NCBI GenBank assembly: GCA_016871805.1
Contig: VHCG01000014.1
Coordinates: 1,205 to 65,204 of the forward strand
Length of the DNA: 64,000 nucleotides
Direction of reading: 5' to 3'
Source of the DNA: Verrucomicrobiota bacterium
GTDB lineage: Bacteria; Verrucomicrobiota; Verrucomicrobiia; Limisphaerales; UBA9464
Part shown: positions 5,244-5,910 of the stretch, piece by piece
How the letters are laid out: each line of letters opens with the position of its first letter
How positions within the stretch are numbered: position 1 is the stretch's first letter
Program-made: the position numbers and the translations under genes
The notes under the pieces: model-generated
Database searches by the model: none
The model's input: the letters and a program-made list of their open reading frames with translations, nothing else
Told to the model about the DNA's origin: nothing

Positions 5244-5320
5244 CGCGGGGTGGAGCAGCCCGGTAGCTCGTCAGGCTCATAACCTGAAGGTCCTAGGTTC
5301 AAATCCTAGCCCCGCAACCA
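5244..5320 (+). tRNA. tRNA-Met (anticodon CAT), initiator type (C1:A72 mismatch), CCA encoded
   Basis: CGCGGGG-TG-GAGCAGCCCGGTAGCTC-G-TCAGG-CTCATAA-CCTGA-AGGTC-CTAGGTTCAAATCCTAG-CCCCGCA-A-CCA. It is nearly colinear with E. coli tRNA-fMet as recalled from memory. Confidence 0.9.
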
Positions 5321-5332
5321 ACTTTCCAGATC

Positions 5333-5358
5333 CAGGGCCCTTGAGGGCCCTGTTTCGT
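5333..5358 (+). terminator. Rho-independent terminator after tRNA-fMet
   Basis: CAGGGCCC-TTGA-GGGCCCTG followed by TTTCGT. Confidence 0.7.
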
Positions 5359-5396
5359 AATCAGAGCTCCTTGGAGATCCGTGCCCAATTCGTCGT

Positions 5397-5503
5397 CACC
5401 TCGTCAGGCTCATCATCCCGCAGCCGCGGGATCCCAGGTTCAAATCCTAGCCCCGCAACCAACTTTCCAGATCCAGGGCCCTTTGAGGGCCCTGTTTCGT
5501 TTC
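5397..5503 (+). repeat. 107-bp tRNA-fMet-derived unit, copy 1 (partial rearranged tRNA plus terminator hairpin)
   Basis: CACCTCGTCAGGCTCAT + CATCCCGCAGCCGCGGGATCC + CAGGTTCAAATCCTAGCCCCGCAACCA + ACTTTCCAGATCCAGGGCCCTTTGAGGGCCCTGTTTCGTTTC. It matches the real tRNA except for the middle segment. Confidence 0.85.
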
Positions 5504-5511
5504 CGGGGCTG

Positions 5512-5910
5512 ATGATGAACCCAACCGCAACCAGGGATCTCTACCGGGTCTACGTCCTCAGGAATGCAGAGGGGCGTGGCTACATCGGAGTCTCAAGTGA
5601 TATCAACGTCCGGCTGGATCAACACAACCAAGGACTCTCCAAATGGACCAAGGGAAAGGGACCGTGGACTGTTGAGTGGACGAGCACCGAGCTGTCCCTC
5701 GGTGAGGCTCGTTGCCTGGAAAACCGGATGAAACGTCAGAAGGGCGGATACGGTCTCGCGACCTTGATGAGCGCCAACACCTCGTCAGGCTCATCATCCC
5801 GCAGCCGCGGGATCCCAGGTTCAAATCCTAGCCCCGCAACCAACTTTCCAGATCCAGGGCCCTTCGAGGGCCCTGTTTCGTTTCTGGAACATCCCGAGTA
5901 CCCGAGATGA
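5512..5910 (+). CDS. Small GIY-YIG (URI-domain) nuclease family protein with a 44-codon tail read through repeat copy 2
   Basis: MMNPTATRDLYRVYVLRNAEGRGYIGVSSDINVRLDQHNQG...EARCLENRMKRQKG carries the GIY / YIG / R / E hallmarks. There is no stop codon until 5908-5910, inside or after the repeat. Confidence 0.7.
   Translation: MMNPTATRDLYRVYVLRNAEGRGYIGVSSDINVRLDQHNQGLSKWTKGKGPWTVEWTSTELSLGEARCLENRMKRQKGGYGLATLMSANTSSGSSSRSRGIPGSNPSPATNFPDPGPFEGPVSFLEHPEYPR
5778..5884 (+). repeat. 107-bp tRNA-fMet-derived unit, copy 2
   Basis: By hand alignment it is identical to 5397-5503 except for one base in the hairpin loop (CTTCGAG versus CTTTGAG). Confidence 0.85.

Follow-up and report, generated by a model that had tools for sequence, protein, structure and literature searches.

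In fungal mitochondria, mobile open reading frames (mORFs) carry a duplicate of the 3′ end of the gene that they target, as described for atp6 of Allomyces and for atp6, atp9, cox2 and nad3 of Glomus (PMC3630166). In the tRNA gene cluster of T-even phages, the free-standing GIY-YIG homing endonuclease SegB drives a recombination-dependent tandem amplification of tRNA and segB, mediated by microhomology between the tRNA and the 3′ end of the nuclease gene (PMC13096335). Here, we analyse a cassette found in a stretch of 64,000 nucleotides (nt) of DNA from a Verrucomicrobiota bacterium of the Limisphaerales (contig VHCG01000014.1, positions 1,205 to 65,204), which as a whole is called the window below. 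Directly behind the intact initiator tRNA gene (tRNA-fMet), a small GIY-YIG nuclease gene lies between two copies of the 3′ portion of this tRNA gene, in both of which part of the anticodon arm is replaced by a palindromic hairpin. We will show that cassettes of this architecture are present in at least 206 genomes and that they vary in copy number and in their presence at a fixed site. The reading that we favour is that of a selfish, homing-type cassette.

The mORFs resemble the cassette in several respects. They consist of a free-standing endonuclease open reading frame (ORF; of the GIY-YIG type in atp9) placed between the functional gene and the displaced copy of its 3′ end, the host gene stays functional, and a horizontal origin is indicated for one of the two copies. 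Their target, however, is a mitochondrial protein gene, while that of the cassette is a bacterial chromosomal tRNA gene. The minimal Slx1/UPF0213-type domain of the enzyme, the clade-specific palindrome in place of the anticodon arm, the long tandem arrays and the 60-nt solo units likewise set the cassette apart from the mORFs, and it is these features, together with the tRNA target, that are new. SegB has in common with the cassette that a GIY-YIG nuclease gene is located among tRNA genes and that tRNA sequence and nuclease gene are repeated. SegB is, on the other hand, a phage enzyme with a DNA-binding region and belongs to a different GIY-YIG clade, whereas the cassette resides in a bacterial chromosome. 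Moreover, the SegB arrays amplify the whole tRNA, to the benefit of the phage, whereas the cassette repeats only a disabled 3′ part. The two precedents make a selfish, homing-type reading of the cassette plausible, and the nearest kind of element would be the free-standing homing endonuclease cassette in which the target gene has its 3′ end duplicated.

As to the enzyme itself, the cassette nuclease matches Slx1 and the prokaryotic UPF0213 (YhbQ-like) proteins in sequence and predicted fold (PMC1564403; PDB 1zg2, 1ywl, 4xlg), and it is a stand-alone domain with no accessory domain. Eukaryotic Slx1, in contrast, requires Slx4, and it cuts branched DNA. In a survey of GIY-YIG proteins, the prokaryotic Slx1-like members are a minimal form of the domain with no function assigned to them (PMC1564403).

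The islands and prophages inserted by tyrosine integrases are also flanked by a direct repeat of a tRNA 3′ portion, with the intact tRNA at one end. The cassette differs from them in having no integrase, a single nuclease gene of ca 260 bp, a hairpin-modified repeat and tandem multiplication. Two further systems bear some likeness to the cassette arrays. These are the integron cassette arrays (ORF plus attC), in which promoter-less single-ORF cassettes end in an imperfect palindromic site, and the REP/RAYT elements, short palindromes that belong with a single enzyme family and also exist as non-autonomous copies. Unlike both, the cassette carries the same enzyme gene every time, has no integrase or Y1 transposase, and has its palindrome within a tRNA-derived segment.

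In the open-access literature, no published account was found in which tRNA-fMet is coupled to a gene of the GIY-YIG or UPF0213 type, nor any of partial tRNA repeats that bear a hairpin, and the open-access literature searched likewise describes no function, genomic association or tRNA association for the bacterial UPF0213-type members. This agrees with an initial annotation, made from the letters of the window alone, which knew of no described system with such an architecture.

The nuclease gene and its flanking units

The coordinates of the features discussed here are collected in Table 1. The ORF between the two units matches the Pfam GIY-YIG family PF01541 (E=1.4e-9, 38.5 bits, cut-off 22.6), and its catalytic domain comprises residues 12-77. 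The start codon ATG is located 8 nt 3′ of unit 1, and the last 44 codons run through unit 2. This read-through arises because the usual TAA stop is TCA in the window, a single substitution that has also occurred, independently, in the third cassette of locus L003 (the loci are defined below) and in P0002 and P0004.

In a profile search against the PDB sequences, the ORF was found to match 1zg2 (4.6e-9), 1ywl (UPF0213) and Slx1 entries. Its nearest relatives of solved structure are these UPF0213 and Slx1 proteins, and not I-TevI or UvrC. The AlphaFold model has a pLDDT of 86 and a beta-beta-alpha-beta-alpha-alpha core of ca 80 residues. The best Foldseek matches of the model are 1zg2, 4xlg and 6seh, each with a probability of 1.00; 1zg2 is a UPF0213 protein, and Slx1 is among the matches. 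The group I intron endonuclease family TIGR01453, on the other hand, reaches only 13.5 bits against a cut-off of 56. Residues Y11, Y14, Y24, G26 and R34 are invariant and E70 is nearly so (alignment A2), and the consensus of 90 sequences, Y.VY..YiG..R..QHN..LEn, retains the catalytic Tyr, Tyr, Arg and Glu. Judged by its sequence and predicted fold, the window protein is a minimal stand-alone Slx1/UPF0213-type GIY-YIG domain, and not a classical homing enzyme with a DNA-binding domain. PADLOC gave a weak match to the candidate defence family PDC-S14 (E=1e-4), and a PHROGs search with the nuclease gave no match.

The tRNA in front of the cassette has the C1xA72 mismatch and the A11:U24 pair, as read directly from the sequence. 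In the terminator-like hairpin that follows it, the stem-loop proper spans 5333-5352, and this segment is duplicated in both units (alignment A1). Identity between the repeat copies (5397-5506 and 5778-5887) is 98%, and that to the tRNA region, in register, is 66%. The units align with the tRNA from CTCGTCAGGCTCAT onward, and then again from the T-arm through ACCA to the terminator hairpin (alignment A1).

Unit 1 begins with the tRNA-derived CTCGTCAGGCTCATCA (5400-5415), which is followed by the hairpin TCCCGCAGCCGCGGGA (5416-5431) and then TC. Next come the T-arm CCAGG/TTCAAAT/CCTAG (5434-5450), the acceptor 3′ strand with ACCA (5451-5461), and a terminator-like hairpin (5474-5494) with its T-tract. 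Unit 2 is built in the same way, with the tRNA-derived part at 5781-5796, the hairpin at 5797-5812, the segment from T-arm to ACCA at 5813-5842, and the terminator-like hairpin at 5855-5875. In both, the 16-nt palindromic hairpin (TCCCGC-N4-GCGGGA) replaces the 8 nt CCTGAAGG, tRNA positions 39-46, which make up the 3′ strand of the anticodon stem and the start of the variable loop. The TC and everything 3′ of it are common with the tRNA. The anticodon loop reads CTCATCA in both window units, compared to CTCATAA in tRNA-fMet. The point at which the units diverge from the tRNA (5415/5416 and 5796/5797; position 38/39, after A38) is also where VapC toxins cut the initiator tRNA, between positions 38 and 39, which may be a coincidence.

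Within the 64 kb, the 34-nt and 25-nt core strings of the units each have no matches besides the expected ones, and shuffled sequence gave 0 matches. ARAGORN calls no tRNA on the units, and no Rfam family matches them at gathering thresholds or at E<=10. When the window unit is folded, an acceptor/T-arm minihelix has an energy of -11.4 kcal/mol, as compared to -12.4 kcal/mol for the hairpin.

The spacer between the tRNA terminator and unit 1, when translated in the frame of the unit, gives QSSLEIRAQFVVT-SSGS, which can be compared with the C-termini GLETLMREHRSSGS of related proteins. Tentatively, the spacer may be what is left of a GIY-YIG ORF that was deleted except for its 3′ end. ORF-less units are found at the equivalent position in L090, L046 and L087.

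Most of this layout had already been recognized in the initial annotation. Its intact tRNA-Met(CAT) with a C1:A72 mismatch and a hairpin terminator behind it, its 107-bp unit that recurs at 5778, and its GIY-YIG ORF, with the start 8 nt past unit 1 and the read-through of 44 codons, were all recovered in the present analysis. It had described the altered segment as 22 nt in place of 14 nt. The replacement is real, but it is better described as a 16-nt hairpin in place of 8 nt. The acceptor/T-arm minihelix that it envisaged is near-isoenergetic with the hairpin in the window unit, but it is not a feature of the family, and the tRNA-Asn units described below cannot form it.

We now consider how the gene could be expressed. 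Over the cassettes, the distance from the tRNA CCA to the start codon has a median of 23 nt and is 6-20 nt in many of them, distances at which co-transcription with the tRNA is forced. No promoter-like site was found at positions 5000-6300 of the window, and the view that the gene has no room for a promoter of its own is thus upheld. In about a quarter of the cassettes, that of the window included, a terminator-like hairpin is located between the CCA and the start. The arrangement suggests that the cassette is transcribed from the tRNA promoter, and that this transcription would be attenuated where a terminator intervenes.

A family of cassettes in Verrucomicrobiota

A profile scan over one genome per GTDB species gave at least 206 loci, 80 of which were fetched (numbered L001 and so on); most of the loci are from metagenome-assembled genomes (MAGs). 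The initial annotation had allowed for the case that the unit and the gene occur in this window only, which can now be dismissed. Among the fetched loci, 76 are labelled Verrucomicrobiota (Limisphaerales, Chthoniobacterales, Opitutales, Methylacidiphilales and others), while the remaining four are on contigs of MAGs, possibly as a result of wrong binning. In 65 of the 80, the nuclease gene has an intact tRNA-Met(CAT) upstream of it on the same strand. The window copy was also found unchanged on 7 contigs from other samples.

One cassette consists of a GIY-YIG gene of ca 85 codons directly 3′ of the tRNA gene, an insert of ca 260 bp, followed by the hairpin-bearing copy of the tRNA 3′ portion, which gives a total size of ca 320-400 bp. 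At nearly every locus, the order is the ORF end GGCTCATAA, TCCCGC-loop-GCGGGA, two bases, the T-arm and CCCCGCAACCA, and 94 units could be parsed in 62 loci. The homologues of the ORF are 52-84% identical and end almost uniformly in ...SSGS or ...GS. This ending is the translation of TCGTCAGGCTCA plus TAA, that is, the TAA of the copied tRNA-fMet anticodon loop serves as the stop codon. Some homologues run on as SSGSSSR(S/G)RGI..., like that of the window, and others start with MGSNPTPATN, which is translated T-arm and acceptor strand.

Among 1.84 billion representative proteins, the subfamily comprises 404 clusters (50% identity) at E<=1e-10 and ca 9,000 at E<=1e-3. Translated tRNA or hairpin signatures are present in the called ORFs of 66 of the top 150 clusters, as compared to 7.8 in shuffled controls. 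Depending on the lineage, the stretch of anticodon loop and hairpin is read in two frames, ending in ..GS* (TAA) or ..AHNPAAAGS* (TAG), which indicates that it is conserved at the nucleic-acid level and not at the protein level.

The hairpin has a nearly constant stem, TCCCGC/GCGGGA, and a loop that is free to vary; 21 of the 94 hairpins are perfect palindromes without a loop. There is one compensatory variant of the stem, TCCGGC/GCCGGA, in L046, L067, L090 and L212. The unit varies with the local tRNA-fMet in its T-arm, in its acceptor strand and in the two bases that precede the T-stem. More precisely, the T-arm is that of the host tRNA in 49 of the 78 units that have one upstream. In the other 29 it differs, mostly in the 5′ strand of the T-stem only, and the T-stem pairing is lost in 22 of these.

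In L087 and L082, the nuclease cores of which share 99% identity, the units have a self-consistent T-arm, GCAGG/CCTGC, where the host tRNA has GTAGG/CCTAC. A foreign, self-consistent T-arm is also present in the units of L054, and both of the reciprocal mosaics of tRNA and unit T-arm occur. We read these observations as a probable horizontal acquisition, after which unit and tRNA would have undergone gene conversion, with the T-loop as the place of exchange.

The hairpin is a hotspot of DNA rearrangement. In L033, L043 and L086, an inverted, complete 5′ half of tRNA-fMet is joined at the palindrome to the 3′ end of the GIY-YIG ORF, which looks like the outcome of an inversion or recombination with its breakpoint in the palindrome. 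Extra hairpins take the place of the unit T-loop in L012 (4264-4345), L060, L074 and L081, in the last three at most ca 100 nt after the ORF stop. Extra copies follow the acceptor strand in L013, L017, L018 and L054, and others are nested in the loop of another hairpin. The hairpin itself seems to be copied from place to place. A lone fragment, GTAGCTCGTCAGGCTCATAA plus hairpin, was also noted at 3464-3500 of L033.

Related cassettes are located behind two other tRNA genes, namely tRNA-Asn(GTT) in L019, L196, L212 and L083, and tRNA-Pro(TGG) in L046 and L044. In L019 and L196, the ORF ends at GGCTGTTAA, in the anticodon loop of tRNA-Asn, and the TAA of the loop is again the stop. The unit consists here of the hairpin TCCGCC-TCA-GGCGGA, TC, and then the T-arm and acceptor strand of tRNA-Asn. 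In L083 and L212, the unit starts from tRNA position 7, and the hairpin TCCCGAC-N3-GTCGGGA is in place of the 5′ strand of the anticodon stem. At tRNA-Pro, the copy extends from the D-arm onward, and the whole anticodon arm is exchanged for the perfect palindrome GTCGCCGCGGCGAC. The Pro ORF of L046 has an in-frame stop, and that of L044 matches only as fragments across reading frames. All four cassette classes follow the same rule: the copy is without the 5′ acceptor strand, and it is the anticodon arm that is destroyed, in every duplicated copy, by a GC-rich palindrome.

Locus L212 is particularly informative in this context. Here, tRNA-fMet with its cassette is followed by tRNA-Asn and by two different cassettes in tandem, one of each Asn class. 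The second of the Asn cassettes has a nuclease of the fMet-type clade (KRQKGG motif) and retains TCCCGC/GCGGGA after the loop TAA. The type and position of the hairpin therefore follow the clade of the nuclease and not the tRNA. The sequence GGCTnnTAACCnnnnGGTC around the replaced segment is common to tRNA-fMet and tRNA-Asn, the two tRNAs used by the KRQKGG clade. We have also considered that the hairpin could in general be a derivative of the fMet acceptor stem, providing the 5′ strand of a minihelix. This was rejected because the same hairpin is found at tRNA-Asn and unrelated palindromes are found in the other clades.

The number of cassettes varies from locus to locus. Two or more same-strand tandem copies are present in 33 of 91 loci, with a maximum of 7 in one locus. 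In L001, which is syntenic with the window (the same Xan_ur_permease gene is upstream), tRNA-fMet and its terminator are followed by at least two full cassettes, the ORFs of which each stop at CTCATAA; a third begins at the contig end. The window, by comparison, has one intact cassette and a solo unit, i.e., it holds two copies of the cassette, one of which is decayed. A solo unit between tRNA and ORF is seen also in L090 and L046. In L087, three ORF-less units of 60 nt (GCTCATAA, hairpin, T-arm, ACCA, TTTTGG) are arranged in perfect tandem between tRNA-fMet and the nuclease gene (3775-3965), and the one nearest to the tRNA carries the T-stem 3′ strand of the host.

An empty site is provided by L196, in which tRNA-Asn lies 86 nt after tRNA-Met. 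Between the same pair of tRNA genes, exactly one cassette is present in L037, L044, L063 and L027, and the host flank resumes past the ACCA of the unit. The cassette is thus polymorphic for presence and absence at a fixed site, with copy numbers from 0 to 7.

The median dN/dS is 0.22 over 165 ORF pairs, which corresponds to purifying selection. The copies within one array are often old, with dS of 0.3-1.7 and dN of 0.05-0.18. In L003, the core from hairpin to ACCA is the same in three units, apart from the TAA/TCA base, which indicates either concerted evolution or a constraint on the unit.

At 2060-2130 of L003, and likewise in L004-L011, three diverged cassettes stand behind a tRNA-fMet fragment that is without its 5′ half (CTCAGGCTCATAACCTGAAGG...ACCA). 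The neighbours include an HNH protein, a uracil-DNA glycosylase (UDG) and a P-loop protein. The locus is probably an island that integrated at the tRNA, upstream of cassettes that were already present, and an interpretation as phage-like was set aside in favour of this one.

Occupancy was estimated with a metagenome scan for the intact anticodon arm, which covered the tRNA-fMet genes of many phyla. A cassette is carried by 3-4 of 120 randomly sampled tRNA-fMet loci, which is a lower bound only, since the sequence of the arm is not specific to Verrucomicrobiota, and one clean empty site (L196) was obtained. A search for the unit core in 2.9 million viral contigs gave 0 matches, and the idea that the cassette is carried by phages was consequently dropped.

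The surroundings of the cassette in the window are ordinary. The flanking genes encode a permease (Xan_ur_permease), a TIM-barrel isomerase-like protein, a major facilitator superfamily (MFS) transporter, DUF1501 and PSD1, housekeeping genes of the kind common in the Planctomycetes-Verrucomicrobia-Chlamydiae (PVC) group. As the initial annotation had stated, neither an integrase nor a recombinase is present in the flanks. Two copies of a 16-nt direct repeat, GGACAAACTTTTCGCG and GGCCAAACTTTTCGTT, stand in tandem at 5983-6014, ca 40 nt 5′ of tRNA-Val(CAC), and may be part of the promoter region of the latter. ARAGORN also called a tRNA-Lys(CTT) of 89 nt at 12720-12808, which has no Rfam support, lies in coding-like sequence, and is most likely spurious. 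The pattern TCCCGC-N-GCGGGA is matched a third time at 56328-56344 (TCCCGCTCATTGCGGGA), distant from any tRNA in what is apparently coding sequence. This match is probably due to chance, with 0.35 matches expected in 64 kb.

Table 1. Features of the cassette locus in the window, followed by the related cassettes and junctions at other loci.
Feature	Location	Strand	Basis
Intact initiator tRNA-Met(CAT), putative anchor/target gene of the cassette	5244..5320	+	ARAGORN; Rfam RF00005, 63.3 bits
Terminator-like hairpin CAGGGCCCTTGAGGGCCCTG + TTTCGT, 3′ of tRNA-fMet	5333..5359	+	inverted repeats, alignment A1, fold
Spacer between tRNA terminator and unit 1	5360..5399	+	sequence
Unit 1, solo unit without ORF	5400..5503	+	repeat search, alignment A1, core-string matches
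GIY-YIG nuclease ORF, 132 aa	5512..5910	+	Pfam PF01541, PDB profile matches, AlphaFold/Foldseek
Unit 2, same build as unit 1	5781..5884	+	repeat search, alignment A1, core-string matches
tRNA-Val(CAC), downstream host neighbour, outside the cassette	6055..6129	+	ARAGORN, Rfam
tRNA-Asn cassettes	L019:4473-4900; L196:2017-2345 (oriented); L212:619-1290; L083:4483-4820		
tRNA-Pro(TGG) GIY-YIG-like ORFs	L046:1023-1420; L044:6674-7035		
Inverted pseudo-tRNA junctions	L033:4240-4345; L043:295-370, 490-560; L086:340-425		

Selfish cassette or host function

We assign a probability of roughly 0.55 to the reading in which a selfish cassette of the homing type spreads, and increases in number, by means of recombination at the duplicated piece of tRNA. 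Of the three possibilities raised in the initial annotation, a selfish GIY-YIG cassette at tRNA-fMet is the one best supported, by the phylum-wide family, the arrays, the ORF-less units, the empty site, the mosaics, and the cassettes at tRNA-Asn and tRNA-Pro; the mechanism is a proposal that we read out of the sequences.

From the architecture and distribution of the cassettes, the purifying selection, the variation in copy number and presence, the mosaic junctions and the pairing of hairpin with nuclease clade, we infer the following course of events. The cassette would be transcribed by read-through from the tRNA promoter, and the nuclease would break or nick either the anticodon-arm DNA of a tRNA gene that has no cassette, or the hairpin. 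Recombinational repair could then use the tRNA sequence that flanks the nuclease gene as portable homology, such that the cassette is copied in and the tRNA stays in working order. The hairpin would spare the duplicated piece of tRNA from being a target, and also from acting as a tRNA. Once in place, the direct repeats would drive tandem amplification, loss of the ORF (window unit 1 being an example), conversion between unit and tRNA, and precise removal of the cassette, by which the arrays, the solo units, the T-arm conversions and the clean losses could be explained.

It is important to note that a number of observations weigh against this scenario. In all loci, the functional tRNA beside the nuclease gene keeps an unaltered anticodon arm, and the hairpin disrupts the duplicated copy only. 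The presumed target is thus intact next to the nuclease gene, and there is no evident self-immunity. Furthermore, the nuclease is a catalytic domain alone, without a DNA-binding domain, and its relatives are specific for structure and not for sequence, which suggests that the hairpin rather than the tRNA gene may be the substrate. Protein similarity tracks host taxonomy at the level of orders, as judged by eye, and a long vertical descent of a useful gene would fit this pattern as well. In the commonest mosaic, the 3′ strand of the T-stem is that of the host and the 5′ strand is different. Simple models with a single crossover, or with a carried 3′ end, were set aside, as these T-stem mosaics require an additional gene-conversion step. 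Finally, no cassette was found on phage or plasmid records, and tblastn with the nuclease gave only distant matches of at most 40% identity.

Some of these observations are what one would expect if the nuclease and units were instead a domesticated, conserved accessory of certain tRNA genes in Verrucomicrobia. They could serve to guard or repair highly transcribed tRNA loci, by an Slx1-like resolution of hairpins or R-loops, or act as decoy attachment sites against tRNA-integrating elements. The phylum-wide distribution at the same locus, the purifying selection even on old paralogues within one array and the rough agreement of the nuclease clades with the host orders are all in line with such a function. 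A structure-specific role would suit the affinity to Slx1/UPF0213. The weak PDC-S14 match and the island-type displacement of the tRNA 3′ fragment beside the cassettes of L003 also speak for a host function. On the other hand, decayed ORFs, solo units, empty sites and a copy number between 0 and 7 are typical of dispensable selfish DNA, the foreign T-arms in the units suggest transfer between lineages, and one and the same layout has been adopted at different tRNAs by several nuclease clades that are unrelated. The low occupancy among sampled tRNA-fMet loci with the same anticodon arm further implies that the tRNA as such does not need the cassette. We regard a host function as rather unlikely. 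A role at the RNA level, corresponding to the tRNA-like punctuation of the initial annotation, appears to us unlikelier still. Here, one transcript would span tRNA, ORF and unit, with the tRNA and the tRNA-like unit as cleavage sites of RNase P, RNase Z or RNase E, and the hairpin or an ACCA-ending minihelix would set the 3′ end, the stability or the translation of the nuclease mRNA. Co-transcription is indeed unavoidable in the many loci with the ORF starting so close to the CCA, and this part of the suggestion stands. The conserved stem with its free loop and compensatory variant, the close energies of hairpin and minihelix, and the fact that the minihelix is the minimum-energy fold in L037 agree with it too. 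Since the stop codon abuts the hairpin, translation could even switch between the folds. The minihelix, however, does not hold up as a property of the family. It is impossible in the tRNA-Asn units with the same hairpin and in the other hairpin classes (Asn, Pro), and the loss of T-stem pairing in most of the units that depart from the host tRNA argues in the same direction. Also, 21 of the 94 hairpins are loop-less perfect palindromes, the hairpin is the site of inversions and duplications at the DNA level, solo units are amplified with no ORF to serve, and the nuclease as constant cargo is left unexplained.

Integration at a tRNA gene classically leaves direct repeats that are partial copies of the tRNA 3′ end. 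The initial annotation had proposed scars of serial integrations, and the units could accordingly be taken for attL/attR-type remnants of integrase-mediated integration and excision at tRNA-fMet, with the GIY-YIG gene as a left-over cargo; the tRNA fragment lacking its 5′ half ahead of the L003 cassettes could be cited in support. The data at hand have largely refuted this explanation. There is no integrase in the flanks of the window, and the interval between the repeats, only ca 320-400 bp long, holds nothing other than the GIY-YIG ORF, always of the same nuclease family. In addition, the copies have a conserved, clade-specific hairpin exactly where the anticodon arm would be, hundreds of genomes share this structure, and the unit was not found in the viral contigs.

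We return to the selfish cassette and to the question of what kind of element it would be. A tentative extension, which we hold to be possible but short of an even chance, is that the Slx1-like GIY-YIG nuclease together with the clade-specific palindromic hairpin, as its cis-acting site, forms a class of mobile element that has so far gone unrecognised in bacteria. The portable homology would come from a specific tRNA gene, namely from its conserved 3′ part. The substrate of the nuclease would be either the hairpin, extruded as such or as a cruciform, or the DNA of the anticodon arm, and the ensuing recombination would copy and amplify the cassette. Units of 60 nt with no ORF would then be non-autonomous derivatives. 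The chance is substantial that the cassettes will deserve the name of a new class of mobile element when their mechanism has been established.

Implications for the nuclease family

The cassettes have practical consequences for genome analysis. Their repeats break metagenome assemblies, such that some contigs end inside an array (e.g. L001), and gene callers produce chimeric ORFs in which tRNA sequence is translated.

For the proteins, the results mean that one large subfamily of Slx1/UPF0213 is tied to a precise DNA context, consisting of specific tRNA genes, the hairpin, and a junction in the anticodon arm at 38/39-46. In the cassettes, a small nuclease and the DNA site on which it presumably acts are naturally paired. 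If the selfish reading is true, they would represent a minimal mobile element of ca 320-400 bp that has neither transposase nor integrase, and by which essential tRNA genes are targeted and yet spared, with tandem arrays and solo units as its traces. If they do constitute a new class of element, this would be the first biological role assigned to the widespread bacterial UPF0213/YhbQ-type proteins.

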